The position numbers and the translations under genes were made by a program. The notes beneath the pieces were generated by a model. It saw only the letters and a list, made by a program, of their open reading frames with translations, ran no database searches and was not told the origin of the DNA. Below, in pieces: positions 25,249-43,696 of a DNA stretch of 62,260 bases; positions within the stretch are counted from its first letter, which is position 1; each line of letters starts with the position of its first letter. Origin of the DNA: an uncultured Candidatus Saccharibacteria bacterium (GTDB lineage Bacteria > Patescibacteriota > Saccharimonadia > Saccharimonadales > CAZARM01). The stretch spans positions 1 through 62,260 of the forward strand of contig CAYXCB010000002.1 in the NCBI GenBank assembly GCA_964463635.1, written 5' to 3'.

Positions 25249-25250
25249 AG

Positions 25251-25299: not shown

Positions 25300-25716
25300 C
25301 TAAGTTGTAGTTGTAACTTTGGTGAGCACAAATCGTACGATGAACTGCGCCAGGGCAACTACGACCAGGCCAATGACAGCGTAGACGATGGTGCTTTTGG
25401 CACCGGCCACGTTACTATCATTACCGCCAGACGTAATGTATTTGAAGCCTCCGACGATAATCATAATCACTGAGACAATACCCACAAACAGAGAGAACAG
25501 ATTAATTATAGTCTTCAGGATACTGTTGATACGGTCATTGGCCTCAGTGTCATTGGTTGGATCACATTCTGTATCGTTAGCATTTAGCTGCGTACCGGCA
25601 CACAGACCTTTTTCAATTTCTGTCTGGGCATAAACTGCTGTAGGTACGGCTACAGGAACAGCTACCATGCCGAACACAGCCAGGCTGGTTAGAAGCGCTT
25701 TAATTTTTTTGATCAT
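25300..25716 (-). CDS. T4SS pilin-like protein, paralog 1
   Basis: 138 aa. Signal peptide, Cys pair (GLCAG...ECDP) and a conserved C-terminal two-TM hairpin ...VSVIMIIVGGFKYITSGGNDSNVAGAKSTIVYAVIGLVVVALAQFIV. Confidence 0.7.
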   Translation of the reverse strand: MIKKIKALLTSLAVFGMVAVPVAVPTAVYAQTEIEKGLCAGTQLNANDTECDPTNDTEANDRINSILKTIINLFSLFVGIVSVIMIIVGGFKYITSGGNDSNVAGAKSTIVYAVIGLVVVALAQFIVRFVLTKVTTTT

Positions 25717-25780
25717 CTTTTTAGTTACCCTTTCTTAAAATATAACTTTACTTATACCATACACTTCTTGGTGACATCAA

Positions 25781-26179
25781 CTACGGCGCAGTGACACGGT
25801 TGACTACAAAGCGGACAATTATTTGCGCCAAAGCCACAATAGCCAGGCCAACTAGAGCAAACAGAATAGTGTTTTTGGCACTGTTAATGGCATTGGAATC
25901 TCCGCTTGACATGATGTACTTTAGTCCGCCGACGATGATCATAATAACGGCTATAACTCCCACAACCAGGCTCAATAAGTTTATGACTGTTTTGATAGTG
26001 CTATCAACATCAGGGCTTCCGGTCGGATTAGCACAGGTATTGCCACCACCGCCTGTCAGACCTATGCCCTCACAGACATCGGCTTTGCTTTGGGCTGAAA
26101 CAAGTACTGCTGGGCTAAATGCTAGAAGGCAACATAAGGCAGTGAGGCTAAGGCTTAGTTTTTTGATAAATGATTTCAT
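25781..26179 (-). CDS. T4SS pilin-like protein, paralog 2
   Basis: 132 aa. Signal peptide, Cys pair, ...IAVIMIIVGGLKYIMSSGDSNAINSAKNTILFALVGLAIVALAQIIV. Confidence 0.7.
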   Translation of the reverse strand: MKSFIKKLSLSLTALCCLLAFSPAVLVSAQSKADVCEGIGLTGGGGNTCANPTGSPDVDSTIKTVINLLSLVVGVIAVIMIIVGGLKYIMSSGDSNAINSAKNTILFALVGLAIVALAQIIVRFVVNRVTAP

Positions 26180-26202
26180 ACGATAAATCTCCTTTATTAA
26201 AA

Positions 26203-26604
26203 TTATAACTTGTTTAGCACGAATGTAATTATTGCCCGCGACAGCAAAGTAATAACCATGCCGACTAAGGCATAAATAATGGTATCTTTAGCTTTATTAA
26301 GCCGTGCTGGGTCGCCGCCGGATATAACATACTGAACGGCACCAATTAATATCATTAATACCGAGGCGATTCCCACAACTATGGTGATTATGCCGGCCGC
26401 TTTAGTGACGACGCCGTTAGGGCCCAAAATCGAATTGTTGCCAGGAGTCTGTGGGGTAGCATTGTCTTTGCATAATGTAGCTTGCGGATTATTCAAGCAG
26501 ACTGGATCTAAAACTGCCTCTTGGGCCAATGAGACTCGGGGCACGGCCAGAAGTACTAGAACAAATAATGACACAAGGCTTAGGTAAGTGAATAAGTTTT
26601 TCAT
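26203..26604 (-). CDS. T4SS pilin-like protein, paralog 3
   Basis: 133 aa. Signal peptide, Cys pair (PVCLNNPQATLC), ...ASVLMILIGAVQYVISGGDPARLNKAKDTIIYALVGMVITLL. Confidence 0.7.
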   Translation of the reverse strand: MKNLFTYLSLVSLFVLVLLAVPRVSLAQEAVLDPVCLNNPQATLCKDNATPQTPGNNSILGPNGVVTKAAGIITIVVGIASVLMILIGAVQYVISGGDPARLNKAKDTIIYALVGMVITLLSRAIITFVLNKL

Positions 26605-26909
26605 ACTCGTCTTATCACAAAGTTTACAATACTAAAGCCAGCCAAACAGATAACTAACCCGAGCAGAGCGTATATAATTGTATTCTTGGCTTTGGCTATG
26701 CCTTGGGGGTCGCCATTGGACAAGGCGAACTTTAAGCCCGATATGGCAATAATAATCAGGGCTGCCCCGCCAGCCGCGGCAAAAACCAGCCTGAGTACTG
26801 AGCCCACAGTTCCTCCTGGACCATTAGTAATTTGGATTCTGGGCAGATTAACACTTGTATTTGGGTCTTTGATAATACTTTCGGCAAACATGTATAGATG
26901 CTTAATCAT
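26601..26909 (-). CDS. T4SS pilin-like protein, paralog 4 (short, no Cys pair)
   Basis: 102 aa. ...AALIIIAISGLKFALSNGDPQGIAKAKNTIIYALLGLVICLAGFSIV. Overlaps both neighbours by 4 nt. Confidence 0.65.
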   Translation of the reverse strand: MIKHLYMFAESIIKDPNTSVNLPRIQITNGPGGTVGSVLRLVFAAAGGAALIIIAISGLKFALSNGDPQGIAKAKNTIIYALLGLVICLAGFSIVNFVIRRV

Positions 26910-27412
26910 TTAATAGCTCCTGCGACTAAGTTAACTATAGCAGTCGCGAATATGGCAATAACCAGACCAATCAAGGCATTGATTATGGTGCTTCGGGACT
27001 CTTTGGTTCGCTCGGGTTCGCCTTGGCTGAGTATATATTGAATACCGCCAAATATGACAAAACCGATTGCCACAATTAAGCCTATCCTAAGGATGATTTC
27101 AAATACTGCCAGCAGGATAGACCCGATGGCGGCCCGCCAGTCAGTATTTTCTACTATTTCGCCTTTAGAATTTGTGGCCTTGTATGTTGGTAACTCAACG
27201 TTGCAGGATTTACCGTCATGTTTTACATCTAAATATTTGTACCAGGTCGGAAATTCCAGAAATGACCTGGATTTATCGCATTTGGGATCGACTGCCGCGT
27301 ATGCAGTATTTGGAGCCACTATTAAGCTACCGACGCTAAGACTGATAACTAAAAATATCAGTAACGTAATCTGCTTTGCTAGTTTCATAAAATACCTCCG
27401 GGCACCAGCCAT
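26906..27412 (-). CDS. T4SS pilin-like protein, paralog 5 (extended N-terminal domain)
   Basis: 168 aa. Signal peptide, Cys pair, ...FVIFGGIQYILSQGEPERTKESRSTIINALIGLVIAIFATAIV. Confidence 0.65.
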   Translation of the reverse strand: MAGARRYFMKLAKQITLLIFLVISLSVGSLIVAPNTAYAAVDPKCDKSRSFLEFPTWYKYLDVKHDGKSCNVELPTYKATNSKGEIVENTDWRAAIGSILLAVFEIILRIGLIVAIGFVIFGGIQYILSQGEPERTKESRSTIINALIGLVIAIFATAIVNLVAGAIK

Positions 27413-27933
27413 TGTAAGAGCGCAAACCCCATTAGGTAGAAAACCAAGGCCAACAGGGCATTGACTATGCGCCCCTTGGCAGCCGCTATGGCTTGTGGGT
27501 TATCTCTGGCCGTTGAGTATTGTATGCCCCCAACCGCCACCATAATCACAATCACTACGCCAACAACTGCCGACAGCACATTGATAAAAATTATCAAATA
27601 AGCGACTATGCCACAGGTTTCCTGGTTGATACCGACGTCGTTGCCGGCCGCGTCTTTACCAGTACAATCTGCGTCAGTAGTACCGCCGCCGCTTCCGCCT
27701 GCTGACTCAACACTGTCCAGGGTTGGGCTGCCAGTTTTGTGGTCAGCACATTTTTCATTATATTCTTGAGGGGTATAAGAGCCCCCTGGGAAGGTCGCCA
27801 ACGCGCCATCAGGACATGACTCCTCTATTAAAGCTGCAGCAGGCCTAGCAAAGCCGACGCCCGCAAGTAAAGATATGGCGAGAGCTGATATTAATACGTA
27901 ATAAAAGCGCAATTTGTATTTTGAGCTAAGCAT
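27385..27933 (-). CDS. T4SS pilin-like protein, paralog 6 (four Cys, longest variable domain)
   Basis: 182 aa. Signal peptide, ...VIVIMVAVGGIQYSTARDNPQAIAAAKGRIVNALLALVFYLMGFALL. First gene of the minus-strand pilin operon. Confidence 0.65.
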   Translation of the reverse strand: MLSSKYKLRFYYVLISALAISLLAGVGFARPAAALIEESCPDGALATFPGGSYTPQEYNEKCADHKTGSPTLDSVESAGGSGGGTTDADCTGKDAAGNDVGINQETCGIVAYLIIFINVLSAVVGVVIVIMVAVGGIQYSTARDNPQAIAAAKGRIVNALLALVFYLMGFALLQWLVPGGIL

Positions 27934-28038
27934 TTAGGATAACTATAATCTCTTTAGGCCACCCTGGCAAGTCATGTCAACAGTGTAAAGCTTGACAACG
28001 ATGATAATAATTTCACCATAGACCAATTTGACTGTTTG

Positions 28039-28047
28039 TGGTATAAT
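28039..28047 (+). promoter_or_regulatory. extended -10 promoter (TGgTATAAT) of the plus-strand T4SS operon
   Basis: TGGTATAAT lies 50 nt upstream of the ATG at 28098, in the divergent region shared with the pilin operon. Confidence 0.5.
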
Positions 28048-28097
28048 TGCATAATAAACCATTGGTGAGTGAGATTAAGTTTAGGAAAAGGAAAACC

Positions 28098-28916
28098 ATG
28101 GCACACGGAACGGATCACGACAAAATAACTAGCCCCGAAGCCCCGGATTTAACACCTGGCCAGGAAAAGGTTCCGCACGCTGGCCGTCTGCCGGCCGAGC
28201 TAGGTGGCGAACGTCCGGTCAGGATATTCCCTGAATCACTTGAGGAAGCCGACGCCAGAAAGCTAGTACACCCCGTCCCACCTGACGCTAGTCAACTCCT
28301 TGAAACAAAGCGAGGCTGGCTTAGACCTCTTGCTATAGGTGCATTCGGTGCCCTAGGTGTTGGCGTTGCGATTTTTGGACTTACCAGAGGGAGCGACAAG
28401 GACCAGACTGCTGTGGCTGTGGCTACTACCGAAAAAGATCCGTCTACCACCGAGACCACCTATCCGCCCCTTGAACTTTTCCCCTCTTATACTGAGAAGT
28501 TTGAGCCGGAGCCAGTAACAGGCCCCGGAGCAGAGACAATTACATCCCAGCTGCGAAAAGATTTTTATTATGCCATTGTTGCCCGGAAGGATCCTTTGAG
28601 GGAGCAGTACATAAATTACATGGTGAATGATGATCCGGAGTTGGCTACCATACTCCTGGATATATTGACCGACGCACGAGCAGCTTATGCTTTTTCCGGG
28701 CTGTCAGAGGAAGAATACTTTGACCAGCAAATGGACACATGGGAGCCAACTGCCGAAAGTGTCGTAGGTGATGAAACCCTGCGCCTTGCTATTCTTCATA
28801 CCGACCCTACCGTAGGCGAGTCGGCACTGGTCAACTGGGATGTCCGCATGATTGAAGACACTAAGTCACCGACGGGCAAGCGTTTCATAGTTACCGGTTA
28901 CCAACGAGTCGAATAA
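28098..28916 (+). CDS. hypothetical single-pass membrane protein, first gene of the T4SS operon
   Basis: ATG preceded by AGGAAAAGGAAAA. One TM (LRPLAIGAFGALGVGVAIFGL) and an acidic C-terminal domain. The track start (28047) lies in the promoter. Confidence 0.55.
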   Translation: MAHGTDHDKITSPEAPDLTPGQEKVPHAGRLPAELGGERPVRIFPESLEEADARKLVHPVPPDASQLLETKRGWLRPLAIGAFGALGVGVAIFGLTRGSDKDQTAVAVATTEKDPSTTETTYPPLELFPSYTEKFEPEPVTGPGAETITSQLRKDFYYAIVARKDPLREQYINYMVNDDPELATILLDILTDARAAYAFSGLSEEEYFDQQMDTWEPTAESVVGDETLRLAILHTDPTVGESALVNWDVRMIEDTKSPTGKRFIVTGYQRVE

Positions 28917-28988: not shown

Positions 28989-31900
28989 ATGCGTCGTAAA
29001 TTAGCCACCCTTGCAGCCTGCGGACTGATCCTGCTTTCAGTCTCTATGTCTTTATTAGTTAGCCTTTATCCGGTGCCAGTGAGCGCTACGGAAACTGTAG
29101 CAAAGGATGAGGAAAGGCGCCTGCTGATTGCCTTTAAATATTGTCTAAGCAATCAAAAGATCGATGAAAGCGACAATGGGAACCCTGCCGAAGATTTCAA
29201 CGACATATGGGATGACGGCAATAACGGCTTCAGTCGAGAAGACGTTGTGGTGGGGTTTGAGCTGGAAGGTGATAATGGCGTCAAGTCTTGCCAAACTAGC
29301 GTTATGCCAGGGCTGCAGCTTTTAGAGTCAAACGTATCGTCTCCCGAACAAGCCAATGCCCGACTATACGATTTGCTGGCAGATTCGGATGGCGGTAAAT
29401 TTAGGTCAAACCGAGACACCCTAGTTCGCCGAATAGATGAAGCCATTACAAAACTCGGCCCTGACCCCAGGCGAGGCTTTACCGCCAGCCGGCTGGCACC
29501 CCTTATAACGCATTGTTATGACCTTAAGACAGATGACCCCCAGCTAGATGCTGGCAGCCAGAACTTTCGGGCCAAACTAAAAGGTACTACTTATTTCTTT
29601 GAGCACACTAAGCCGGATGACGATAGTTTTGAATGGATCGACCAAGGAGACGGCGGCCGCGATGCGGGCGTCGGACAACGCTACAACACCATCGGCGATG
29701 TTTCACTTTCTTTCACGGCGGGCGGTGCTAAAGATTTTGAATCGTTTGAAGATGACTTTTTCCCATTTGGTTCAGACTTACAAAACTTTACAAATTCTGG
29801 GCACACCGGAACTGGGAATAATGGCATTTTAGATTGTAGGTTTATAAAGGAAAAGGTGGAGTCAGGATTCTTTACTGATGACGTCGTAGAATCAGTCAAT
29901 GTCGACACAAATTCTATAGTAACTGGTATAGATATCGATGGTGACGGTAAGGTTGACGAAGTAATTGAACAAGTAAACACCGGCCCGACTGGCGGTGGGG
30001 CCGGAGACGAGCCCTCGTGTGAAAACGACGGCGGCGAGTCGAGCTGGATCTTGTGTCCGGCGCTCCGGGTGGCCAGCAGCTTTTTGCAAACTATCGACGA
30101 GAAGCTAAATGACTTACTGAGTTTGGATAGCGATTATTACAATAATAGTGACCTGCGTGAAACGTGGCAGAGAATACGCAACCTGGCTTATGTGATCCTG
30201 ATACCTATTATGCTAGTAATGGTTATCAGCACAGCTCTGGGCTTTGAACTTATTAGCGCTTATACAGTTAAAAAAGCTTTGCCTAGATTTTTTGTGGCAA
30301 TACTATTCATGACTCTATCGTTTGATATTACTAAGTTTTTAATTATTCTAACTAATGACGTTGGCCAGGGGATGCAGGGCCTGGTAATTTCCTCTTTCAC
30401 AGGCCAAGGCGAGCTGACGCTGGCCAGTTTGTTTGACCCGGGTGGCTACTCTGGGGCGTTATTTACTGGAGCAGCCGTAGCGGGTGTCGTTCTTGGCCCA
30501 GGACTTATTCTTGTCCTTGCCAGCTATCTATTTGTCGGAGGCCTCGCACTGCTTATAGCGCTGTTGGCTTTTTCTCTCCGTCAAATGCTGCTAATAATGT
30601 CTATGGTCTTGGCGCCTTTAGCAATTTTGGCTTGGATATTCCCTGGCAATGATAAGCTTTGGAAATTATGGTGGGGAGCATTCTCAAAACTTCTCCTGCT
30701 TTACCCGCTTATTATGGTTCTGATTGGTGGTGGCAAGGCATTTGCAGCAATTGTTCAGCAAGTAGGCGTTAGCGACTTTTTGGCAACAGTTCTCAAGTTA
30801 GCGGCATATATAGGTCCTTACTTCTTTATACCAGCCATGTTCAAGTTTGCCGGCGGTATCTTTGCTACCGTTACCGGTATGGCCAACGACCGGAGCAAGG
30901 GCCTCTTTGACCGCCAAAAGAAATACCGTGAGCGTAAGCTTGGCGAAAAATTCACTGACGCCAAGCGCGGTGAGTACTACAAACGAGACAATGCCATTAG
31001 CCGGGCGGTTAATCGCGGCGGTATAGGAATTGGCGCAGGCTACAAAGGCGGGTTTGGTTTTGGCCGACGTGGCGAAGAAGCGCGAGCCAGAATCGGTCAG
31101 GAAGCAGCCACAGACGCTACGCAAAACAACAAAAAACTCCGTGAACTTATTCTCAATGACGACCATGGCGGCGCCGTGATGGCACTAAGTGGAGGAACAT
31201 TACGAGGCGCCGAGCAAGCCTCACATGATTTAGCCGCTGGTTGGATGCGATCAGATCCGACTTTGTCTGCCGCTGACGCTGAAACCCGCCGTGTTCGAGC
31301 TTTGGCCGCAGCACGGGCAACTGGTATTACGCGTACTAATGCCCAGGCCGCGATGACAATGATGATGCAAAACAAAGCTCGCTCAGTTGGTGATGGTGAC
31401 TGGGCTACTGTTCAGGCAGGTATCGATAGGCTCCATCCAAATAACACAACCGCGGCCGAGCAAATGAGAGACAGCGCCCAGTTCTTTGCGCGCGGTAATG
31501 GCCGAGCCGATCTTGGCGGTGCTACGCCTGGTGCCGGATATGGGCGCATCCAGCCAGGGCAATTGGTTACTGGCCATCCTTCTGGAGTACGTGCAGTAAC
31601 ACAAGAGCTACAGACTAGGTATAACATGGCGCTGGCGACTGGTAATTACGATGATGCTACCGATGCAGCCAGCGAAATCACAGCCTTGCGTAGTGTGGCC
31701 GGATCTGCCACGCCAGAAAACCGTGTTATACTTGGCGAATTCTTTGATGGAGTTGCCGGAATCGACACAGGTGATCAAAGAAGCCTGGACGAGCAGTTTG
31801 GTGATTTTCTTTCGTTTACATCCGGAGGTACGGCTGGAACCACAAATGAAGTCACCAATAGAATAAGAGCCCAAGCAGGCCTCTACGATCAAGGAACCAG

Positions 31901-32261
31901 AGGATTGCCCGTGGGCGCCCCGGGTGGACCGGGCGCTCCGGGTGGACCTCCTATCCCTCCCGCACCTCCTGCTGGTGGTGCCGGTGGGGCTGCAGGTGGG
32001 CCTCCCCCTCCTTCTGACCGCCGACTTAAAAGAAACATAGAGCCCCTAGTGGAGCTAGAAAATGGTATAAAACTTTATAAGTTCCAGTATTTGTGGAGCA
32101 ACCAAAGCTACGTTGGTGTTATGGCGCAGGATTTACTTGATACACACCCATCAGCAATTTCTATAGGTGCAAATGGTTTTTATCGCGTAAATTACACTCT
32201 CTTAGGACTAGAGATGCTCACCTGGGAAGAATACCTGAAGCGCACCAAAGCACCAGTATAA
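28989..32261 (+). CDS. VirB6/TrbL-like polytopic T4SS channel protein with a C-terminal tail-spike intramolecular-chaperone (peptidase S74-like) domain
   Basis: 1090 aa. Signal peptide, ~360-aa extracytoplasmic domain, a block of TM helices (about nt 30170-30910), a soluble region, a Gly/Pro linker (GAPGGPGAPGGPPIPPAPPAGGAGG...PPPP), then SDRRLKRNIEPL...VGVMAQDLLDTHPSAI...YRVNYTLLG. Confidence 0.65.
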   Translation: MRRKLATLAACGLILLSVSMSLLVSLYPVPVSATETVAKDEERRLLIAFKYCLSNQKIDESDNGNPAEDFNDIWDDGNNGFSREDVVVGFELEGDNGVKSCQTSVMPGLQLLESNVSSPEQANARLYDLLADSDGGKFRSNRDTLVRRIDEAITKLGPDPRRGFTASRLAPLITHCYDLKTDDPQLDAGSQNFRAKLKGTTYFFEHTKPDDDSFEWIDQGDGGRDAGVGQRYNTIGDVSLSFTAGGAKDFESFEDDFFPFGSDLQNFTNSGHTGTGNNGILDCRFIKEKVESGFFTDDVVESVNVDTNSIVTGIDIDGDGKVDEVIEQVNTGPTGGGAGDEPSCENDGGESSWILCPALRVASSFLQTIDEKLNDLLSLDSDYYNNSDLRETWQRIRNLAYVILIPIMLVMVISTALGFELISAYTVKKALPRFFVAILFMTLSFDITKFLIILTNDVGQGMQGLVISSFTGQGELTLASLFDPGGYSGALFTGAAVAGVVLGPGLILVLASYLFVGGLALLIALLAFSLRQMLLIMSMVLAPLAILAWIFPGNDKLWKLWWGAFSKLLLLYPLIMVLIGGGKAFAAIVQQVGVSDFLATVLKLAAYIGPYFFIPAMFKFAGGIFATVTGMANDRSKGLFDRQKKYRERKLGEKFTDAKRGEYYKRDNAISRAVNRGGIGIGAGYKGGFGFGRRGEEARARIGQEAATDATQNNKKLRELILNDDHGGAVMALSGGTLRGAEQASHDLAAGWMRSDPTLSAADAETRRVRALAAARATGITRTNAQAAMTMMMQNKARSVGDGDWATVQAGIDRLHPNNTTAAEQMRDSAQFFARGNGRADLGGATPGAGYGRIQPGQLVTGHPSGVRAVTQELQTRYNMALATGNYDDATDAASEITALRSVAGSATPENRVILGEFFDGVAGIDTGDQRSLDEQFGDFLSFTSGGTAGTTNEVTNRIRAQAGLYDQGTRGLPVGAPGGPGAPGGPPIPPAPPAGGAGGAAGGPPPPSDRRLKRNIEPLVELENGIKLYKFQYLWSNQSYVGVMAQDLLDTHPSAISIGANGFYRVNYTLLGLEMLTWEEYLKRTKAPV

Positions 32262-32310: not shown

Positions 32311-33342
32311 ATGGAAACGCCTACAACACAAACAGATCTACAACCCGCTCCTGATGCCCACTTACCGGAAGAGCAGCACAAACATGAACTGCTTGCAAGA
32401 GTAGGCGAGGAACTTAGGCTTGCTTATCATGGCGTGCTAAGAAACATTTCGGAACGGCGCATGTCCATGGGTGGTGACCGCATGGAAACCATGGACCACA
32501 AGGACGCTCTATACGCCGACATAGGCAACATAGCGGCCGGACAGGAAGCTGTGCTTACTGATACCGTTTCAGGTCAGACGGCAAGGCCTAGATCCTTCGT
32601 AGAGCGCTATATGGACAAGCGTCTGGATAAAAAGAACTGGCGAGCTGAACTCCAAGCCTCTGAGCGTAAGCGAACTGTCGCCGCTTACGGCGGTGAACGG
32701 TCGCAGACTATGCGCTCTGATAGCTTGATAGACACTTTTGCGCGTAAACGGGTCGCGGGTTCAGTGTACCGCGCTGGTGATATGTCAGCCGCAGAGTTAA
32801 GGCTCGCCCGCGCAGATATTCAAGCGACCCCCAGGGCGTTTGAGAATTCAGAACAGCGCAAGACCAGGCGTCGAGCTGATGGTGCCGTCAATGATCTAGA
32901 AAAAACAGCTGAGCAACCAGTACTTTCCAGATGGCGCGGGTGGCGGCGCGGGGAAGCCATCAAAGATATAAAGCGCCACCACTCGCGTGCCGAAAAGCAC
33001 CGTGTTCAGGAAGATAAGTTTGCTGCCAGGCGTGCCGAATGGCAAGCTGGAGCGCCTCAAAGAGTTCAAGCCGCGCAAGCGGAAAAGCAAAGGAAGCAGG
33101 AAAGACGTCGTGAACGAATGCAGAGAGTCGGTAATTTCGCACTGTCTGTTGGTCGTGGGATTTCGGATCGATTAAGTCAGCATAAAGACGAAACGGTCAA
33201 TGCTTACCACGAGGGTCTCTCGAATGAAGATGTTGCTGGCGGCCGGGTACAACAGCGTATCGATAAACTAGCTCGCTTAAGCGGCCGAAGATACTCCCGG
33301 ACCAAAACCAAATTAGCGGCTCGTCGCAACCCCGAAGCATAA
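32311..33342 (+). CDS. hypothetical highly basic Arg/Glu-rich soluble protein
   Basis: 343 aa with no TM. Long charged helical runs (RRAEWQAGAPQRVQAAQAEKQRKQERRRERMQR). Visibly GC-richer than its neighbours. Confidence 0.5.
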   Translation: METPTTQTDLQPAPDAHLPEEQHKHELLARVGEELRLAYHGVLRNISERRMSMGGDRMETMDHKDALYADIGNIAAGQEAVLTDTVSGQTARPRSFVERYMDKRLDKKNWRAELQASERKRTVAAYGGERSQTMRSDSLIDTFARKRVAGSVYRAGDMSAAELRLARADIQATPRAFENSEQRKTRRRADGAVNDLEKTAEQPVLSRWRGWRRGEAIKDIKRHHSRAEKHRVQEDKFAARRAEWQAGAPQRVQAAQAEKQRKQERRRERMQRVGNFALSVGRGISDRLSQHKDETVNAYHEGLSNEDVAGGRVQQRIDKLARLSGRRYSRTKTKLAARRNPEA

Positions 33343-34553: not shown

Positions 34554-34559
34554 GGGCTG

Positions 34560-34910: not shown

Positions 34911-34930
34911 TGCGTCTATTTTAGCACCTG

Positions 34931-34958
34931 GCACTCTGTACTACACACTTGGTACTAT
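34931..34958. repeat. heptanucleotide array, inner right arm of cassette 2 (GCACTCT GTACTAC ACACTTG GTACTAT)
   Basis: Four 7-nt units just upstream of the cassette ORF start. Confidence 0.5.
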
Positions 34959-35073
34959 AAGCGGTTTCCCCTATACTTGTATTATGTAGTCTTGTTCTTG
35001 TATGGTGGGAATTACTAATGAAAATTATAATCTTGAATACTAAAATTATATACAAATTTGCGACGTTAGATCT

Positions 35074-35108
35074 GTACTCCGTACTCTGTACTCCGTACTC
35101 TGTACTCC
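35074..35108. repeat. heptanucleotide array, outer right arm of cassette 2 ((GTACTCY)x5)
   Basis: GTACTCC GTACTCT GTACTCC GTACTCT GTACTCC. Reverse complement of the RGAGTAC units at 34526..34553. Ends 20 nt before the next T4SS gene. Confidence 0.65.
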
Positions 35109-36428: not shown

Positions 36429-36455
36429 TGTTTCATAATTCTGATTTCAAATTTG

Positions 36456-36483
36456 TTTCGGGTTTCGGGTTTCGGGTTTCGGG
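36456..36483. repeat. (TTTCGGG)x4 array, right arm of cassette 3; also a canonical G-quadruplex motif
   Basis: Four perfect heptads. G3 tracts at 36460-62, 36467-69, 36474-76 and 36481-83 are separated by TTTC. Ends ~10 nt before the virB4 SD (GGAGG). Confidence 0.7.
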
Positions 36484-36507
36484 TTTGAAAAACCGGAGGT
36501 TCTTCTA

Positions 36508-38424
36508 ATGGCTTTCGGCAAAAACAAACGTCCCCAATTTGATCCTGTTACCCTAGCCCAGAGCCAACGCCATGCTGAACAGCAAGAAGTCCAGGCTGCT
36601 TTCCAGAAAGGCATTACGGCTTTGCGTGATTTTATCGCACCGTCTTCATTGGAATTTGGCAGCACACACTTCCAACTTGGTACCCGCTATGCTCGAACCT
36701 ACTACGTCTATGGGTACCCTCGTCAGGTTTATACGGGCTGGCTATCGCCCATGATCAACATGGACGAAGTAATGGATATGTCGCTGTACATTTATCCTGT
36801 CGAGAGCCAAGTTGTCTTGGAAAACTTGCGCAAAAAAGTTGGCCAACTGGAAGCCGGCCTACAAATCGATGCTGAAAAGGGTCGAGTCCGTGATCCTGGC
36901 AAGCAGGCGGCGATTCAAGACGCCGAAGAAATGCGCGACAAGCTACAGGTTGGTGAAGAGCGCTTCTTCCGCTTTGGTTTTTACTTCACGATTTATGCCG
37001 GTAGCTTGGACGAACTCGAGTTTGTAGCCCACAAGGTTGAATCAATTCTGGGTCAGCAGTTGGTTTACTCCAAGCCGGCAACTTCGCAGCAAGAGCAAGG
37101 GCTCAATAGCACGATTCCGGCCTTTACGGACCAGCTGCAAATCCGCCGCAACTTTTCAACTGGTGCGCTATCAACCAGTTTCCCATTTACCTCAGCTGAC
37201 CTAAGCCAAGAAAATGGTATTTTATACGGTGTAAATATGCATAACTCCGGCCTGGTTATCTTTGATCGTTTTAGTCTAGAAAACAGCAACTCAGTAGTCT
37301 TCGCTAAATCCGGCGCTGGTAAATCGTTTACGGTTAAACTCGAGGCCCTGCGCAGCATGATGTTTGGTACCGAAGTGTTTATCATTGACCCGGAAAACGA
37401 ATACCAGCGAATGGCCGAAGCTGTCGGCGGAGCTTACGTTCGACTAAGTTTAAATTCAGCGACTCGTATCAACCCATTTGACTTACCAAAAGTTGTCGAT
37501 ACTGAAGAAGCCGACAATGCTCTTCGTAGCAACCTGATTACCCTGCACGGCTTGCTCCGACTCATGATGGGCGGAGCCCAGGCCCAAATGCTAGGTGGGG
37601 GCGCTACTATGATGCCGGCTCTAAGCCCGGTTGAAGAGTCAGACTTAGATGCCGCCCTAATTGAAACTTACGCCAAGGCCGGTATTACTAATGACCCCTT
37701 AACTCACACCGGTCAGCCTCCCACGATTGCTGACCTCTATGACACTCTGCTGCATATGGGCGGGAGCGGACCCCAGCTAGCTCAGCGCCTGCGCAAATAC
37801 ACCACAGGTACATTTGCCGGTATTTTCTCTCAGCAAAGCAATACCGATATCAACAACCCGTTAGTAGTCTTTAATATCCGCGACCTAGAAGATGAATTAC
37901 GCCCGGTAGCCATGTACATTGTGCTCAATTACATCTGGAATAAGACTAAATCTGATCAAAAACGCCGTATCTTGATTGTTGACGAAGCATGGCAATTAAT
38001 GAAGTATGAGGATTCAGCCAACTTCTTGTTTAGCCTAGCTAAACGAGCCAGAAAATATAACCTAGGTATTACTACTATCACTCAAGATGTGGAAGACTTT
38101 ATGGGTTCTAGGATGGGTAGAGCTATTGTGGCTAACGCTAGTATGCAGATATTGCTCAAGCAATCACCCTCAGCAGTTGATGTCTTGACTGATGTGTTCA
38201 AATTAACCAGCGAAGAGAAGAAACGTTTAAGCCAATTCCCGGTCGGGCAGGGACTGTTCTTTGCCGGCCAGAACCACGTTCATATCCAAGTTACTGCTAG
38301 TCCAACAGAGACTGGGCTGATTACCACCAACCCTGAGCAAGTCCAGCAAATGGCCTTAGCCGGCGAGTTAAATCAACCCCAAGGCACCATTGACCTTAAT
38401 AACCCGGCACCGCCGGCGGTATAA
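36508..38424 (+). CDS. virB4: VirB4/PrgJ/TraE-type T4SS ATPase
   Basis: 638 aa. Walker A VFAKSGAGKSF, Walker B RRILIVDEAWQL, ITTITQDVEDF, and an N-terminal domain with ...YPRQVYTGWLSPMI.... Confidence 0.9.
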   Translation: MAFGKNKRPQFDPVTLAQSQRHAEQQEVQAAFQKGITALRDFIAPSSLEFGSTHFQLGTRYARTYYVYGYPRQVYTGWLSPMINMDEVMDMSLYIYPVESQVVLENLRKKVGQLEAGLQIDAEKGRVRDPGKQAAIQDAEEMRDKLQVGEERFFRFGFYFTIYAGSLDELEFVAHKVESILGQQLVYSKPATSQQEQGLNSTIPAFTDQLQIRRNFSTGALSTSFPFTSADLSQENGILYGVNMHNSGLVIFDRFSLENSNSVVFAKSGAGKSFTVKLEALRSMMFGTEVFIIDPENEYQRMAEAVGGAYVRLSLNSATRINPFDLPKVVDTEEADNALRSNLITLHGLLRLMMGGAQAQMLGGGATMMPALSPVEESDLDAALIETYAKAGITNDPLTHTGQPPTIADLYDTLLHMGGSGPQLAQRLRKYTTGTFAGIFSQQSNTDINNPLVVFNIRDLEDELRPVAMYIVLNYIWNKTKSDQKRRILIVDEAWQLMKYEDSANFLFSLAKRARKYNLGITTITQDVEDFMGSRMGRAIVANASMQILLKQSPSAVDVLTDVFKLTSEEKKRLSQFPVGQGLFFAGQNHVHIQVTASPTETGLITTNPEQVQQMALAGELNQPQGTIDLNNPAPPAV

Positions 38425-38453
38425 TAAACGAAGCATTACTAAGATAGAGATTT

Positions 38454-41249
38454 ATGGGCGAACCAGCACCAATATACGATGACGAACAGTCCCCAGATCC
38501 ATACACGCCGAAACCGCGTTTTGGCGTTGTTGATGGTGAAGGCCAGTCAACGCCTAGGAGCAAAGGACATTTAAAAAGTGTTAGCAGTAATGACTTAAAT
38601 GCTGCCGAGCAAGCCGGTGCAACACCAGAACTGGATCTACCAAGCACCGCTGAGAAAAACTTAACCGGTGATAGCGACCAGATTGGAGGCGGCTTCAAAA
38701 AAGAAGGTGACAGGCGCAAGGGCCGCTTTTCAAGAAAACAGAAGATTGCTGGCGGAGGCATAATAGGCTTATTGCTTGGCGGGGGTGTTGGGATAATAAC
38801 GCTCATTAGCGGCCCTTTGCAGCTATTGCATTTATCTAAAACTCTTTTACCCAACTTTGCCAATCAAGATCATGCTAGCAATGTCAGGATTCGTGGCTTA
38901 TACAGGTGGGCTAAAACTGGCAACCCTGGCGAAACGCGAATAGGTGCATTGAGCAGCAAATTTGTGTATCCAGAGATCCAAAAAAGTCTAGCCAAAAATG
39001 GTATCGCCATCGGCACGGACAGGTTTACTGGTCAAATAACAACGTTAACGATTGAGCCGGCCAAAAACCCCCAGTATCAGGGATTGTCACCCGATGAGGC
39101 GAGAGCCCGCATTGCGGCCGATAACGGTATTGACCCAGCCAAGGTATCTCAGACAAGCGGACTAAATGGTGGAAAGTTTTCATTTAACCTTAGGGACTCG
39201 AATATTGCCGCTAAAAGGGCGGCCATAAGAACCCATGTTGAAAGCCAAAATCTTGGCAAGATCAAGACGGCCTTACAAATCAGAACGCTTGGCAAGGTCC
39301 ACAATGCGCCTTCCTGGCTGCACCCCTTGAAACGGGCGGGGGCTTCGATCGACCTTAAGATATCTACTCGCATCCAAAGATCTAACCTATTTAAGGAATA
39401 TGAAGCAAGACGTACCGCTAAAGCGGCGGCCAGAACCGCCGCTGCCGAAGCGCGGGTAGCTGCGGTCAAATCAAAGTTAAGGATTGGTGCCGGCGCCGCC
39501 GGAGCTGTACTGCTTGGATCTACTGCTGTTTGCGTAGCAAAGGATGTGGCCAGCGAAGTTCCAGCCCTCAATCGCGAGAACATCGTGATACCGGCTATGA
39601 AGTCGTCCGTGGACGCCATGGCGCTAGGTGCGCAAATCCAGTCCGGCCACGTGCCATCCGACGGCTTTGAACAAATGGGCACAATTGTTCAAAACCTTAA
39701 GGACGAGGAAGGCAGGAGTATTTGGGAAGGCAGGGCCCTACAGTCCGAACTGGGCCATGAAACTGGCGAGGATATTGACCCGGATCTTAAGCAAGCATTT
39801 TCACCCGAGAGCTCAGCGTCGAATATCGAACAAGCCCTTGATTCACTTGGAGCTGATGCCCTATGCAGTAAGGCCGGACAGTTGTTTTCGACAGTTGCGG
39901 GTACAGCGCTATTATTTGTTCCGGGGGTTGGCGTGGCAACCAAAATCGTCTCGACAGCCGCTGGTGCAGCCGTTATTACTGCTATCACCACACTTCTGCC
40001 AAGAATATTGGATAATGATACTGCTATTGGGGTCTTGCACCAAGGTCCCAACGGGGGTAATGTCGACGCCTACGGCGCCCGTGAGGCCGCTAATTCTTCA
40101 TTCCGCTCAACCGGCGGCTCAGAGCTCAGCTCAGCTCAAAGCGCGGCACTAAAAAAACAACACGATCAACTGGACAAGGAAGAATTTCAGGCCAAGAGCT
40201 TTGCCAGCCGGATATTTGACGTATACGACCATCGATCAATCGCAGGTAAGCTTATCGACAAAACAAGCAGCAGCCCCGTCCAGAATGTGGCAAGTGCTGC
40301 GCGCGGGCTAACGAGCGGAGCCTGGTTGACAGGTTTGTCATCTCTATTCACACCTAAAACATACGCCGCTACTGAAGTCCCTTATGATTATGGCTTCCCG
40401 GAGTACGGATTTAGCCTTAGTGACCTTGAAGACCCTTTAGTAGAAGATCCTTATGCCAATGCCGATGAAGTGGCAAAAATCCTTAATGGACTTGAAGGTC
40501 AGAAATATATCGATAAAGCTAAGGTTTGTTTTGGTGTTGACATAGTAAAAGGCGCCGATGGCTGGGATGCCATTACCAGTACTGATGTTAACCCCAGCAC
40601 CGCCGACTATGCCGAGGCAAACTGTCTAGAGGCCGGCAATAATGATTGGTTGCGAGTCCGCTTCTTTGTTTTCGACTCCCAAGCAATGAATAGCTACGCA
40701 TGTTACGAGGGGGACGAGTCTTCCTGCACCCAGCTTGGTTTTGGTGCCAATACAAGCAGCTCCACCGGAGCGGCCACAGGATCTGGTGTAGATACTTCAG
40801 CAATGGCTTGTCCGAGCGATCCTGATATCACCGACGGCGGGGTTGTGGAAAAGTATGGGCCAGGTAAAATTCTGCAGTATAGGATCAGGCTGTGCCTCGT
40901 GTTTGGCATCGATGTCAATGTTTCAATAGCGCAAAATACCGCCAATATGATCCGGGCTGCAGCGGCCCAAGGAGTAACACTGCAAGGGGGAGGCTATCGA
41001 ACTTATGAGGAGCAAGTAGCTTTAAGAGTAGACCATGGATGCGCCAGTGATTCCTTACCAGCGAGTGCTTGTTCGCCCCCCACGGCCTCGCCAGGAACCT
41101 CCAATCACGAAGATGGCGAAGCAATCGACTTTACTAATTGTGGATCGCGTGGCACAGCCTGTTATCAGTGGCTAGCAACTAACGCGGCGACATATGGGCT
41201 AATTAATCTACCTAGTGAGCCGTGGCATTGGTCAAGGACGGGCAACTAG
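38454..41249 (+). CDS. large membrane-anchored T4SS protein with a C-terminal LAS-type (VanY/peptidase M15-like) peptidoglycan peptidase domain
   Basis: 931 aa. TM GGGIIGLLLGGGVGIITLISG. The C-terminus has GGGYRTYEEQ, SNHEDGEAIDF (SxHxxGxAxD) and EPWHW. Confidence 0.7.
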   Translation: MGEPAPIYDDEQSPDPYTPKPRFGVVDGEGQSTPRSKGHLKSVSSNDLNAAEQAGATPELDLPSTAEKNLTGDSDQIGGGFKKEGDRRKGRFSRKQKIAGGGIIGLLLGGGVGIITLISGPLQLLHLSKTLLPNFANQDHASNVRIRGLYRWAKTGNPGETRIGALSSKFVYPEIQKSLAKNGIAIGTDRFTGQITTLTIEPAKNPQYQGLSPDEARARIAADNGIDPAKVSQTSGLNGGKFSFNLRDSNIAAKRAAIRTHVESQNLGKIKTALQIRTLGKVHNAPSWLHPLKRAGASIDLKISTRIQRSNLFKEYEARRTAKAAARTAAAEARVAAVKSKLRIGAGAAGAVLLGSTAVCVAKDVASEVPALNRENIVIPAMKSSVDAMALGAQIQSGHVPSDGFEQMGTIVQNLKDEEGRSIWEGRALQSELGHETGEDIDPDLKQAFSPESSASNIEQALDSLGADALCSKAGQLFSTVAGTALLFVPGVGVATKIVSTAAGAAVITAITTLLPRILDNDTAIGVLHQGPNGGNVDAYGAREAANSSFRSTGGSELSSAQSAALKKQHDQLDKEEFQAKSFASRIFDVYDHRSIAGKLIDKTSSSPVQNVASAARGLTSGAWLTGLSSLFTPKTYAATEVPYDYGFPEYGFSLSDLEDPLVEDPYANADEVAKILNGLEGQKYIDKAKVCFGVDIVKGADGWDAITSTDVNPSTADYAEANCLEAGNNDWLRVRFFVFDSQAMNSYACYEGDESSCTQLGFGANTSSSTGAATGSGVDTSAMACPSDPDITDGGVVEKYGPGKILQYRIRLCLVFGIDVNVSIAQNTANMIRAAAAQGVTLQGGGYRTYEEQVALRVDHGCASDSLPASACSPPTASPGTSNHEDGEAIDFTNCGSRGTACYQWLATNAATYGLINLPSEPWHWSRTGN

Positions 41250-42370
41250 TGATCCGACGCATTTACATACTAGTAACACTCTTTGTTATGTTGGGTAGTT
41301 TTGTGCCAAGAGCCAGCGCCCTTACTGCAGATCAGAGAAGAGTTATTGATTCAGGAGTCCATTACTTCGATGTAGAGACCGGCTGCGCCACAGCACCCGT
41401 TGTCAGCCTGTCGGGCAGTACGTACGGTACTAACATTACGGGCGGTGATACAACTATACAAAAAATTACACCATCTCCTTTTAGCGGCACTCCAATCACT
41501 CCAACTGGCGTAACCCTACACTGGACAGGAGGTAACCCCAATCAATCTGTAGAAAGTTTTATATCTAATATCAGCAGCAGAGGCTTTTCGGTACAGCTGT
41601 ACATTGATGGCAATGGAAATGTCTACCAGCTGGTTGATCAGTTAAATACTCTAACCGCTCACGCAGACGGGGCGAACAGCAAGACCATCGGTATAGAAAT
41701 TGCCGCCGGCAGCGATGGTACCGTAGAAACAGCGGCTAGAGAAATTAACGCTAATACTATTCAAAAACAAGCCGTCGCGCGTACTGTAAAATATCTTGTT
41801 GACACTTACGCTATGAGCATCGCCCCAGATGTCCCGAACCTCAAAGGTATCTTGTCCCACCACCAAATTTCTCCCGATCGTAAAAGTGATGTGGGAGATC
41901 AGTACCATGCAGAGATTGTAAGCGCTGTTAAAAATAATGGCCAGTTGACCATATCAAACAGTGGGAGTTGCTCGCCAGTAGCGACCGAGGGGGGTGGAGG
42001 TGACTCAGAAGCGAACAAGCTCCTTGGCCAGCAGTTGGCAGCCGATAAAGGCTTTGCCGGATCCGAGTGGGCCTGTCTGCTTGAATTGTGGACCAGAGAA
42101 TCCGGTTGGAACCAGGCGGCGGATAACCCCAAATCATCAGCTTATGGCATCCCCCAAGCGCTTATGGGTGTACATAAAGCCAATATTGACGCTAGCTACC
42201 CAGGATACTATGATGCCGAAGTGCAAGTCACACCCGGAGAAAAAGCCACCTACAATTATACTGGCGGAGACCCCGTTGTCCAGATTAAGTGGGGCTTAGA
42301 TTATATAAATGGGCGATACCGCACACCATGCGCTGCACTGGCGTTTCATGACGCGGAGGGTAATTACTAG
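41222..42370 (+). CDS. bifunctional cell-wall hydrolase: N-acetylmuramoyl-L-alanine amidase (amidase_2/PGRP type) plus lytic-transglycosylase-like domain
   Basis: 382 aa. GVTLHWTGG...TAHADGANSKTIGIEIA...SHHQISPDRKSDVG, then a C-terminal LELWTRESGWNQAADNPKSSAYGIPQAL. The start is uncertain because it overlaps the previous gene by 28 nt. Confidence 0.7.
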   Translation: MALVKDGQLVIRRIYILVTLFVMLGSFVPRASALTADQRRVIDSGVHYFDVETGCATAPVVSLSGSTYGTNITGGDTTIQKITPSPFSGTPITPTGVTLHWTGGNPNQSVESFISNISSRGFSVQLYIDGNGNVYQLVDQLNTLTAHADGANSKTIGIEIAAGSDGTVETAAREINANTIQKQAVARTVKYLVDTYAMSIAPDVPNLKGILSHHQISPDRKSDVGDQYHAEIVSAVKNNGQLTISNSGSCSPVATEGGGGDSEANKLLGQQLAADKGFAGSEWACLLELWTRESGWNQAADNPKSSAYGIPQALMGVHKANIDASYPGYYDAEVQVTPGEKATYNYTGGDPVVQIKWGLDYINGRYRTPCAALAFHDAEGNY

Positions 42371-42379
42371 GAGATTATT

Positions 42380-43696
42380 GTGAACAAGAGAAAACTGGTA
42401 ATAATTACATTGGTAGTCCTGTTAGCGGCCTTAGTTGTGTGGCTACTCATCAGGAAAGACCCTAAACCACCCGAGACACTTGTCGCCAGTGAAATTGTTG
42501 CGACGAACATTAAGCATACCGACCAGTTGCCGCAGTCCAGCGATAGTTTAACCTTCTTCACCGGTACGGCTATCGCAGATATTACTTTCCCTAAGGGAGG
42601 TGGGGCGGCTATTAGTCTGACCGGGTTGGATGATGTGCCCTTTGAAGATGTAGACAAAATAAGTAGTAGTGATGATCTTACCCTCGTTCGAAGCTATTTT
42701 GATCCGGGATCGAGTCTATTGAATTTTGCCCCTGGTGCCAGACTTACGGGCAGAAGCGGGGCAGGCAAAAGCTGGTTTGTGATTAATAAAAGCGGGCAAG
42801 TTAGTCCGCTAACCTTGCAAAACCAAGATACGATCGCCGACGGCCTAGTCGATGGGGAGCAAATTTATCTGCTCGTGAACCAGTCGGGGGGCAAGCAGCA
42901 GCTAGTTTCCATTAAGGGAACCGCGGAGCCAAAAGTTGTTGCTGATGGATTAGCGGCAACCTCTTTTGTAGGAGCGTTAGAGGGCAGAATAGTAATGCGA
43001 GACTTCCGAGGGAAGGTATATATTCACTACGGAGGCGCGACGGACGAAGTCGCATCAAACGTTGGCGAAGTCTGGCTGGACAGAACGAGCGGTCGCTTGG
43101 TTTTGTCGCCAATAAATGAAAGTGAAGTTGGCGAAGAGGGGGGAATAGCCGCGAGCCAAACGACAGAAAAACCGCCGACAAAGGTAGATATTATCCGCGT
43201 GGATAGCCGAGAGAAACAAACTTTGACCCTGCCATATCCTATCTTTTTTGTAAGCAAAGGTTTTGTTTTAAGCGTACCAGAGCTAAGTAGGCCTTCACGG
43301 ATCGAGTTAAGCAACCTCGTAACGGAAGAACAGTTTGGTATTGCTATTGACCAGTCGGGCAACAAAGTAACAGGTCCGGTTAGCTCCTTGCATATATTAA
43401 AGGGCGATTTTAGTTTGATTGGCGCAATCACCACGAACAATCAGCTTGTCTTATACGGCGAGGGCGATTTTATCAAAAAACAAGCACCCGCCAAGCTGCC
43501 GATTGTTAAGTCCACTATTGGTCTATATGGCTACGAATATAATATTCGGGCTAATCAGTTAACGATCTTTTATGACTCTGCTGCCGATACGGATATTATC
43601 TCCGCTTCTTTGGTCTTGTTTGAAGACCAGTGTGACTGCGATATCAACCAGTTAAGCAAGCAGTGGCGAGAGACAGCGTCGGAACCCGGGCTTTAA
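42380..43696 (+). CDS. hypothetical N-terminally anchored extracytoplasmic protein, last gene of the T4SS operon
   Basis: 438 aa. One N-terminal TM (LVIITLVVLLAALVVWLLI) and a beta-rich remainder. Its position corresponds to PrgL/VirB8-like genes in Gram-positive systems, but this is a position-only argument. Confidence 0.5.
   Translation: MNKRKLVIITLVVLLAALVVWLLIRKDPKPPETLVASEIVATNIKHTDQLPQSSDSLTFFTGTAIADITFPKGGGAAISLTGLDDVPFEDVDKISSSDDLTLVRSYFDPGSSLLNFAPGARLTGRSGAGKSWFVINKSGQVSPLTLQNQDTIADGLVDGEQIYLLVNQSGGKQQLVSIKGTAEPKVVADGLAATSFVGALEGRIVMRDFRGKVYIHYGGATDEVASNVGEVWLDRTSGRLVLSPINESEVGEEGGIAASQTTEKPPTKVDIIRVDSREKQTLTLPYPIFFVSKGFVLSVPELSRPSRIELSNLVTEEQFGIAIDQSGNKVTGPVSSLHILKGDFSLIGAITTNNQLVLYGEGDFIKKQAPAKLPIVKSTIGLYGYEYNIRANQLTIFYDSAADTDIISASLVLFEDQCDCDINQLSKQWRETASEPGL

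Follow-up and report, generated by a model that had tools for sequence, protein, structure and literature searches.

A type IV secretion system (T4SS) locus occupies positions 25300-43696 of the 62,260-nt contig CAYXCB010000002.1, the whole of which is referred to here as the window and which comes from a permafrost-metagenome Saccharimonadales genome. We regard it as likely that this locus is the Saccharimonadia version of the chromosomal T4SS of Patescibacteria, derived from monoderm conjugation machinery of the MPF_FATA/CD1110 type, fixed beside oriC and vertically inherited, and that it specifies a pilus-building machine for contact or exchange with a host, working independently of a type IV coupling protein (T4CP). 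Both the system and the interpretation given in a preliminary description of the window, namely a domesticated apparatus serving interaction with a host rather than self-transfer, are already known almost point for point from the literature, and the window provides another orthologue of a machine that is probably central to the life of ultrasmall Patescibacteria on their hosts. To the published picture the window adds several refinements of annotation: VirB4 is split, there is a candidate, though a weak one, for VirB8, pilin-like genes are shared with systems of Bacillota and Mollicutes, an S74 domain occurs sporadically, and mobile-looking cassettes encoding intervening-sequence (IVS) proteins lie inside the operon.

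The conservation of the locus speaks for its being a resident part of the chromosome. From a scan of the GTDB species, each represented by one genome, 581 relatives emerged, of which the best 80 were taken with 10-kb flanks and compared by tblastn and open reading frame (ORF) maps; nearly all these loci come from metagenome-assembled genomes labelled Saccharibacteria, Saccharimonadales or Patescibacteria, and the block was assessed wherever the contig extends far enough. Where contigs reach, these 80 Saccharimonadales species representatives keep a common order, an outcome that answers the synteny check proposed in the preliminary description: comF, hsp20 and six pilins (minus strand), then a bitopic protein (variable), a VirB6-like protein, a basic protein (variable), PrgI, a TrsD-like protein, VirB4, hydrolases and an anchored protein, and finally recF, dnaN and dnaA. 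Downstream of VirB4 the relatives encode a protein of 900-1100 aa and another of about 400 aa, both with one transmembrane (TM) segment, and a further one-TM protein before recF-dnaN-dnaA, a neighbourhood seen in 55-64 of the 80 loci. VirB4 itself is present in 80/80 loci with a median identity of 86.5%, somewhat inflated because the loci were picked by VirB4 similarity, versus 75% for DnaA, 70% for DnaN and 56% for RecF in the same genomes. More than 8000 close VirB4 homologues were found, the top ones 87-92% identical and the named ones labelled Saccharimonadales or Saccharibacteria, whereas on plasmids the closest relatives of VirB4 share 29-40% identity with it and belong to monoderms. All ORFs of the locus are intact. 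Taken together, the recurrence of the block and a VirB4 more conserved than DnaA argue for a core, vertically inherited machine and not for an integrative and conjugative element (ICE), and such strong conservation suggests that the locus is essential for epibiotic growth in the source organism.

The surroundings of the locus were analysed by listing the ORFs of the window and scanning essentially all those of at least 100 aa against Pfam and NCBIfam. In agreement with the preliminary description, these scans detected no relaxase, no VirD4/TraG/TcpA coupling protein, no VirB11 and no integrase in the 62 kb, a statement that for the T4CP applies to the 62-kb window; the sole coupling-protein trace was a sub-threshold NCBIfam match to CD1115 (E 0.12) located inside VirB4 itself. 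The GC content does not shift between the locus and its flanks, and a repeat search of the region revealed no att-like direct repeats or mobile-element scars bracketing the locus, the only long direct repeat there enclosing a vapBC cassette and not the T4SS. Hence the hallmarks of an ordinary ICE that the preliminary description had named as arguing against domestication, a nearby relaxase, T4CP or att sites, scars, or absence from relatives, were looked for and did not appear. The recF, dnaN and dnaA genes lie about 0.9-5 kb to the right, with 3.7 kb between the end of the locus and dnaA (about 4 kb in the earlier estimate) and a cluster of four DnaA-box-like sites (48816-48942) immediately upstream of that gene. 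Domestication for host interaction is supported by the conserved synteny, the lack of scars, the continuous GC content, the housekeeping genes on both sides and the low identity (at most 40%) to plasmid VirB4 proteins, and matches what has been published.

The six leftward pilins announced in the preliminary description all proved to be members of the Pfam family T4SS_pilin (PF18895). They are encoded by six adjacent minus-strand genes (25300-27933), five of them scoring above the gathering threshold and the sixth at 25.5 against 26.6 bits, and several also match TrbC/VirB2. The six proteins are paralogues sharing 29-42% identity. Their C-terminal two-helix core is conserved, and their N-terminal part, which contains Cys, is variable; a signal peptide is predicted in five and absent from the fourth, whose short form is conserved in other loci at 94-110 aa. 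All six additionally match the NCBIfam model NF045849 (Mbov_0395 family pilin-like conjugal transfer protein), below its cutoff. The array is kept in about 47-50 loci, which is essentially every locus with enough left flank.

The pilin and machinery operons are divergent and share a control region, as had been noted, but this region more likely spans 164 nt (27934-28097) than the 113 nt (27934-28046) given at first. The first rightward gene probably starts at ATG 28098, since the database gene call has 272 aa, an AGGA-rich ribosome-binding site precedes this ATG and the TTG at 28047 shares nucleotides with a −10 element (TGgTATAAT); it is this start that sets the length at 164 nt. Promoter-like sites, identified by consensus match only, occur on the plus strand at 28019-28047 (TAGACC-17-TATAAT with an upstream TG) and on the minus strand at 27970-27942 (TTGCCA-17-TATAGT), and both the operon structure and the promoters of the locus are predictions. 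The minus-strand −10 motif TATAGT (27947-27942) stops 8 nt before the ATG of pilin 6, with no Shine-Dalgarno sequence between them, and the mRNA of the pilin operon may be leaderless.

On the rightward side the nine genes of the earlier inventory, including a VirB4 with GAGKS and IVDEAW motifs, were found in place, although two four-helix-bundle genes lying between them (34560-34934 on the opposite strand and 36024-36428) had been overlooked, as had a third at 24904-25248. VirB4 surpasses the cutoff of the NCBIfam model conju_CD1110 (360.6 versus 325 bits), matches Pfam P-loop_TraG, AAA_10 and DUF87, and has as its best solved relative the Thermoanaerobacter VirB4 (PDB 4ag5, E 2e-47), TrwK following at E 6e-6. 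The gene described previously as a Pro-rich protein does encode 10.4% proline, but its product is a TrsD-like protein, equivalent to the detached N-domain of VirB4. In NCBIfam it matches TrsD NF041427 (E 3e-6) and the N-terminal positions of three VirB4 models, among them VirB4_plasma at positions 98-253 (E 2e-7) and CD1110 at positions 2-118 (E 2e-5). None of these matches reaches the curated full-length cutoff, and the VirB4 of the window covers positions 177-734 of the CD1110 model. Since one protein matches the N-terminal positions and the other this later part of CD1110, the motor is split into two genes. The TrsD-like protein is the second most conserved component (79/80 loci, median identity 71.7%), and in 79 loci the median distance from its gene to virB4 is 3 nt, compared with 480 nt in the window and 469 nt in locus L011.

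Orthologues of the PrgI/VirB3-like protein occur in 74 of the 80 loci. Directly after VirB4, the family of the 931-aa hydrolase was recovered in 78/80 loci by iterated hidden Markov model (HMM) searches, and that of the amidase/lysozyme-like protein in 52; to judge from their domains, the M15 peptidase and the amidase/lysozyme-like protein would supply the VirB1 function.

The large VirB6-like protein owes its name to its topology and position. Orthologues are present in 57 loci, their conservation being limited to the Cys pair and the TM core (aa ~325-700), and weak matches to TrbL/VirB6 (PF04610) appear in 4 of 16 orthologues (best E 8.5e-4), with none in the window protein itself. A profile built from the 16 orthologues and compared with PDB sequences returned chance matches to influenza HA2 only. 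At its C-terminus the window protein carries a Peptidase_S74 intramolecular-chaperone domain (aa 1009-1051; 28.4 bits against a Pfam cutoff of 22). This region (31974-32258, aa 996-1090, SDRRLKRNIEPL...), on a tail predicted to be cytoplasmic, is preceded by a linker rich in Pro and Gly, and a domain of the same kind stands at the same C-terminal position in only 3 of the 57 orthologues, namely L019 (6617-6853), L032 (6874-7098) and L050 (4819-5043). Peptidase_S74 chaperone/autoproteolysis domains normally terminate phage tail spikes and fibres.

Of the rightward genes, the first, the third and the last are hypervariable, and hardly any homologues of them were detected, even in libraries of billion-sequence size: only six remote homologues of the first were found among 1.8 billion representatives, and one of the last among 5.8 billion proteins. 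Iterated HMM searches over the ORFs of the 80 loci gave one match for the first gene, three for the basic protein and none for the last, though ORF maps of the relatives do contain one-TM positional analogues of these genes. The basic protein is missing from this position in many relatives, consistent with homologues in only 3/80 loci. For the first gene, residues 130-272 of the AlphaFold2 model have a predicted local distance difference test score (pLDDT) of about 90, and Foldseek yielded no match at E<=1e-3, with TM-scores of 0.3-0.56; its top list holds VirB8 (5jbs, E 0.056), TrwG, IcmL-like, TcpC and NTF2 folds, none of them significant. With its VirB8-type topology and this model the first gene is a weak candidate for a VirB8-like subunit, and a better one than the last gene. 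The model of the last gene (mean pLDDT 52.6, aa 140-240 ~83) consists of a TM helix and beta-hairpin repeats, and Foldseek pairs it with beta-propellers at E ~1e-5 and low TM-scores, not with the NTF2 fold of PrgL/VirB8; given the low confidence of the model, it may tentatively be called propeller-like. The features of the locus and its neighbours are collected in Table 1.

Table 1. Positions and properties of the T4SS genes and neighbouring features in the window (coordinates in nt).
Feature	Position	Strand	Properties
tRNA-Ser genes	23031-23258		2 kb left of T4SS locus
comF (ComFC-type)	23303-24037		Two genes left of pilins; same neighbour in at least 20 related loci
Third four-helix-bundle gene	24904-25248		Region 24874-25265; just left of pilins
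VirB2-like pilin 1	25300-25716	-	138 aa; signal peptide and two TM helices; PF18895 E 6e-13, TrbC PF04956 E 2e-6, NF045849 E 2e-7; orthologues in 47 loci
VirB2-like pilin 2	25781-26179	-	132 aa; PF18895 E 4e-10, NF045849 E 1.6e-6
VirB2-like pilin 3	26203-26604	-	133 aa; PF18895 E 4e-8, NF045849 E 4e-5
VirB2-like pilin 4	26601-26909	-	102 aa, without signal peptide; PF18895 E 3e-9, NF045849 E 7e-10 (38.5 bits)
VirB2-like pilin 5	26906-27412	-	168 aa; PF18895 E 1.3e-10, NF045849 E 7e-8
VirB2-like pilin 6	27385-27933	-	182 aa; long Cys-containing N-terminal region; PF18895 E 1.4e-5 (just below gathering score), NF045849 E 5e-6; aligns with paralogues
Divergent control region, pilin versus machinery operon (predicted)	27934-28097	.	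164 nt
Bitopic membrane protein	28098-28916	+	272 aa; disordered N-terminus, one TM, C-terminal domain of four helices then four strands
VirB6-like polytopic protein	28989-32261	+	1090 aa; signal peptide, 370-aa variable ectodomain, Cys pair and core of 6-7 TM, variable tail, Pro/Gly linker, S74 domain
Basic soluble protein	32311-33342	+	343 aa; net charge +20, no TM; variable accessory gene
PrgI/VirB3-like protein	33393-34520	+	375 aa; 2 TM at aa 20-64, long hydrophilic tail; PF12666 31.5 bits versus cutoff 27
Cassette between prgI and trsD	34526-35108	-	Gene 34560-34934; PF05635 E 9e-31, TIGR02436; not part of the T4SS
TrsD-like protein	35128-36027	+	299 aa; 10.4% Pro, first 55 aa Pro-rich
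Cassette between trsD and virB4	36061-36487	+	ORF within 36024-36428; PF05635 E 3e-13
VirB4 ATPase	36508-38424	+	638 aa; Walker A GAGKS aa 269 (37312-37326), Walker B IVDEAW aa 490 (37975-37992)
Anchored VanY/M15B D-Ala-D-Ala carboxypeptidase-type protein	38454-41249	+	931 aa; TM near aa 100; PF02557 E 3e-10, aa 821-927
Amidase_2 (N-acetylmuramoyl-L-alanine amidase) and C-terminal lysozyme-like (AggPromo/APF C-terminal-like) protein	41222-42370	+	Secreted or anchored; PF01510 E 7e-14; NF052397 75.3 bits versus cutoff 40
Anchored all-beta protein, last gene of the cluster	42380-43696	+	438 aa; N-terminal TM
recF	44557-45618		
Fourth four-helix-bundle gene	45656-46000		recF/dnaN site
dnaN	46047-47132		
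dnaA	47391-48761		3.7 kb from end of T4SS locus

The presence of the gene set for pilus biogenesis and the absence from the locus of VirD4, the substrate receptor, suggest that the pilus itself is the primary product of the machine. In Agrobacterium, assembly of the T-pilus requires the VirB proteins but not VirD4. The sequence directly supports Sec signal peptides and two membrane helices for the VirB2-like pilins, an ATPase split into the TrsD-like N-domain protein and the VirB4 motor, a PrgI/VirB3 and a polytopic VirB6-like protein, two wall hydrolases after VirB4 and the lack of a relaxase or coupling protein beside the machine, whereas pilus formation, the targets of the hydrolases and any transport are inferred. 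By this model, a VirB4 hexamer could dock on PrgI and VirB6, pull pilins out of the membrane and polymerise them into the pilus, while the hydrolases might open the wall of the epibiont itself and possibly that of the host too, and the bitopic product of the first gene would possibly act as a VirB8-like scaffold. The resulting pilus would be an organelle of contact or penetration directed to a host bacterium and probably a conduit for exchange, both transport and its direction being presumed, and the locus would not transfer itself by conjugation.

Several points weigh against this model. A pilus built by this machine has been demonstrated in no Saccharibacterium, and a search of RNA-seq runs returned none that contains the locus of the window. 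Three of the nine rightward genes lack an assignable role, the VirB8 assignment of the first gene is only a hint, and the VirB6 assignment is a weak one, drawn from topology, position upstream of VirB3/VirB4, the TM core and the weak TrbL matches of orthologues. In addition, a T4CP may be encoded elsewhere in the source genome, outside the 62 kb, and, given the VirD4-like genes of many Patescibacteria, cytoplasmic substrates may be exported.

A more far-reaching proposal, which we consider unlikely, is that a VirB2-type pilus of a monoderm cell pierces the host envelope and works in reverse as a feeding tube, VirB4 powering the uptake of host RNA, nucleotides, lipids or peptides without a coupling protein, and the hypervariable anchored proteins together with the six pilins setting host specificity. 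If true, the machine would supply macromolecules that the epibiont is unable to synthesise.

Quite unlikely as well, in our judgement, is the import of macromolecules in the manner of Helicobacter ComB or archaeal Ced, by which host DNA, RNA or other polymers would be drawn in as a supply of nucleotides. The gene set (pilins, VirB3, VirB4, VirB6 and no T4CP) does resemble minimal import systems; VirB4 gives partial matches to the DNA-import ATPase models CedB (E 5e-14) and CedD (E 8e-7), although far below their cutoffs; and the comF gene two positions left of the pilins is a neighbour in at least 20 related loci also. Nucleotide synthesis is missing from Saccharibacteria (PMC10633639), a Patescibacterium that feeds on RNA and has tubules at the host interface has been reported (bioRxiv 10.64898/2026.06.21.733656), and uptake has been the subject of speculation in a review (PMC12857230). 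However, according to that review (PMC12857230, citing PMC10633639), deletion of comEC in S. epibionticum abolishes transformation and leaves viability unaffected, whereas the T4SS is essential, so that the essentiality does not stem from ComEC-dependent DNA uptake. Nor was any nuclease or nucleic-acid-binding subunit identified in the locus, whose basic protein (32311-33342) is not conserved, and the direction of transport is not readable from the genes.

That the machine exports proteins without a T4CP, in the way of Bordetella Ptl or Brucella VirB, seems to us very unlikely; its cargo would be effectors or toxins, perhaps the small Sec-dependent "pilin" array itself, delivered onto or into the host. 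McLean 2020 (PMC7427843) noted a likeness to ptx/ptl in the apparatus and its six small neighbours with Sec signals, and protein export is among the alternatives suggested by Wang 2023 (PMC10633639); moreover, the anchored proteins encoded at the two ends of the operon are hypervariable and evolve like host-interaction factors. Yet all six small proteins possess the VirB2/TrbC two-helix pilin core and not toxin-like domains, and, besides the wall hydrolases, Pfam and NCBIfam scans identified no effector-like enzyme domain in or beside the locus. Neither import nor export is separable from the pilus-building model by sequence alone. Finally, an ordinary ICE or its decaying remnant, with relaxase, T4CP and att sites beyond the window, is scarcely credible: VirB4 belongs to the conjugation family CD1110 and relaxases are present in a few Patescibacteria (PMC12102498), but the same housekeeping neighbours recur in the 80 species loci, VirB4 is better conserved than DnaA, every ORF is intact, the 25 kb on the left and the 18 kb on the right contain no integrase, relaxase or T4CP, and neither flanking direct repeats nor a GC shift were found. 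The tRNA-Ser genes 2 kb left of the locus (23031-23258) were what had prompted this reading, which was rejected on synteny, composition and lack of repeats.

Earlier work has already described this system. In TM7x and other Saccharibacteria, VirB4, VirB6, PrgI, gntX/comF and six small Sec-signal proteins beside the apparatus were described by McLean 2020 (PMC7427843), who also remarked on the resemblance to ptx/ptl. By transposon sequencing (Tn-seq), the S. epibionticum cluster SEML1_0006-0019, including six pilins, was found to be essential for epibiotic growth, a result that has been shown for S. epibionticum only (Wang 2023, PMC10633639), and the cluster was likened to Gram-positive conjugative T4SSs without a recognisable coupling protein or relaxase (PMC10633639). 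Quinonero-Coronel 2025 (PMC12102498) defined a monophyletic clade of Patescibacteria VirB4 related to MPF_FATA, with TrsD, PrgI, VirB6, pilin arrays and proximity to dnaA/dnaN/rnpA; VirD4-like T4CP genes occur elsewhere in many Patescibacteria genomes, the S. epibionticum copy being non-essential, and relaxases are rare, carried by a few Patescibacteria (PMC12102498). A 2025 FEMS review also covers the system and speculates on a conduit for uptake (PMC12857230), and it has been proposed that tubules at the Patescibacteria-host interface "may be T4SS pili" in the report of an RNA-feeding Patescibacterium (bioRxiv 10.64898/2026.06.21.733656). Before this system no T4SS had been reported as essential for its own carrier bacterium, and among monoderm T4SSs it alone has a pilin array. 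With the systems of S. epibionticum ML1 (SEML1_0006-0019) and Nanosynbacter lyticus TM7x the window has in common the dnaA-adjacent chromosomal site, six VirB2-like pilins, VirB6-like, PrgI, TrsD and VirB4 proteins, peptidase and lysozyme-type genes directly after virB4, the comF/gntX neighbour and the lack of a clustered relaxase or T4CP, orthology being judged from the match to the published description and the 80 Saccharimonadales loci. The window copy differs in its two IVS-protein cassettes, the S74 domain on the VirB6-like tail and a vapBC pair before recF.

Among conjugative systems of monoderms, the MPF_FATA type (pCF10 PrgH-I-J-K-L; CD1110-family elements of the CTn2/Tn916 type) is alike in the order of VirB6-like, VirB3-like, VirB4 and large multi-domain wall hydrolase genes. 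The likeness to PrgH-I-J-K-L proposed in the preliminary description stands for these genes but is not supported for the last one, which is propeller-like on its low-confidence model, and not PrgL-like or NTF2-like. Both the MPF_FATA systems and the window lack the outer-membrane core VirB7, VirB9 and VirB10, and the window VirB4 passes the CD1110 cutoff. Unlike these systems, the window has a pilin array and a split VirB4 but no relaxase, T4CP, oriT or adhesin; its hydrolases contain VanY and Amidase_2 domains instead of LytM, SLT or CHAP, and its locus is a fixed chromosomal core gene set, not a mobile element.

On the Pontibacillus sp. ALD_SL1 megaplasmid NZ_CP062975.1 (351.8-361.4 kb) the genes follow the order of the Saccharibacterial T4SS: two of pilin-like type come first, then one for a polytopic protein of 779 aa, VirB3/TraL-like and TrsD-like genes, a virB4 of the CD1110 family whose product is 36% identical, and a gene for a peptidoglycan hydrolase of 1050 aa. 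Its VirB4 is among the closest ones outside the candidate phyla radiation (CPR), and homology to the window proteins is detectable for VirB4, TrsD and the pilins only: hhalign of the VirB6-like profile against the 779-aa positional counterpart gave a probability of 2.9%, and BLASTP of the 931-aa hydrolase against the 1050-aa one gave no match. The window pilins likewise match the pilin-like model of the Mycoplasma ICE genes of the Mbov_0395/0397 type, below the family cutoff. These matches and the Pontibacillus genes indicate that pilin-like genes are not foreign to monoderm T4SSs of this subclass. The Pontibacillus locus has a cluster of flagellar genes next to it, its replicon is typed as non-mobilizable, and the annotation shows no relaxase within 14 kb; it may represent another non-conjugative, pilin-bearing monoderm T4SS. 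Helicobacter ComB, Bordetella Ptl, Brucella VirB and archaeal Ced also work without VirD4 or relaxase, and are mentioned as analogies that imply no membership. Of these four, ComB, which takes up DNA, and Ced are importers and not exporters. Ced is archaeal; the other three belong to diderms and have VirB7-10 cores.

The four-helix-bundle genes overlooked earlier belong to a set of four paralogues (23S_rRNA_IVP PF05635/TIGR02436, distantly Avd-like) within 21 kb of the window. Three of the four are bracketed by inverted repeats of 14-33 nt, like rRNA intervening sequences, and the genes with their repeats look like a small mobile cassette. The one between prgI and trsD fills the intergenic space and has 30-nt inverted repeats (34526-34555 and 35079-35108, 90% complementary). 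Imperfect inverted repeats with GTTTCGG-type units (36061-36093 and 36455-36487) flank the one between trsD and virB4, which separates two genes that are otherwise adjacent, judging by their median gap in the 79 loci; among metagenome contigs, extra depth and loose ends were seen in the GTTTCGG-repeat arm at 36455-36486. Occupancy across the 80 loci is sporadic, the trsD/virB4 site being filled only in L011, the prgI/trsD site only in L033 and the recF/dnaN site in L010, L012, L020 and L046. The stems of the cassettes could process or terminate the T4SS transcript. A literature search returned nothing relevant linking IVS-protein or four-helix-bundle genes to Patescibacteria.

Beyond the right end of the locus, an 87-nt direct repeat (43707-43793 and 44564-44650, 94% identical) corresponds to a duplicated 3' end of recF and encloses 43822-44477, where a FitA-like ribbon-helix-helix antitoxin and a PIN/VapC toxin are encoded as a pair. 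Since the last T4SS gene directly abuts recF in relatives, this vapBC cassette appears to be a recent insertion. The remainder of the 18-kb right flank comprises recF, dnaN, dnaA, rnpA, yidC, jag and glycosyltransferases, together with a minus-strand gene (51207-51710) for a 167-aa protein with a PaaX-middle/Cas2-like domain, near which no CRISPR array or other cas genes were noticed. The 25-kb left flank consists of housekeeping and envelope genes, among them those for GroEL, a Mur ligase, TsaD, a class I tRNA synthetase, tRNAs, the comF-like protein and Hsp20. In its otherwise housekeeping outer part, a weak GH30-like protein (393-1697, minus strand) is encoded beside a 437-aa protein (2311-3624, minus strand) with phage-baseplate BppL_N and DUF5907 repeats, which resembles a tail fibre or receptor-binding protein and could be an adhesin of the cell surface or a relic of a prophage.

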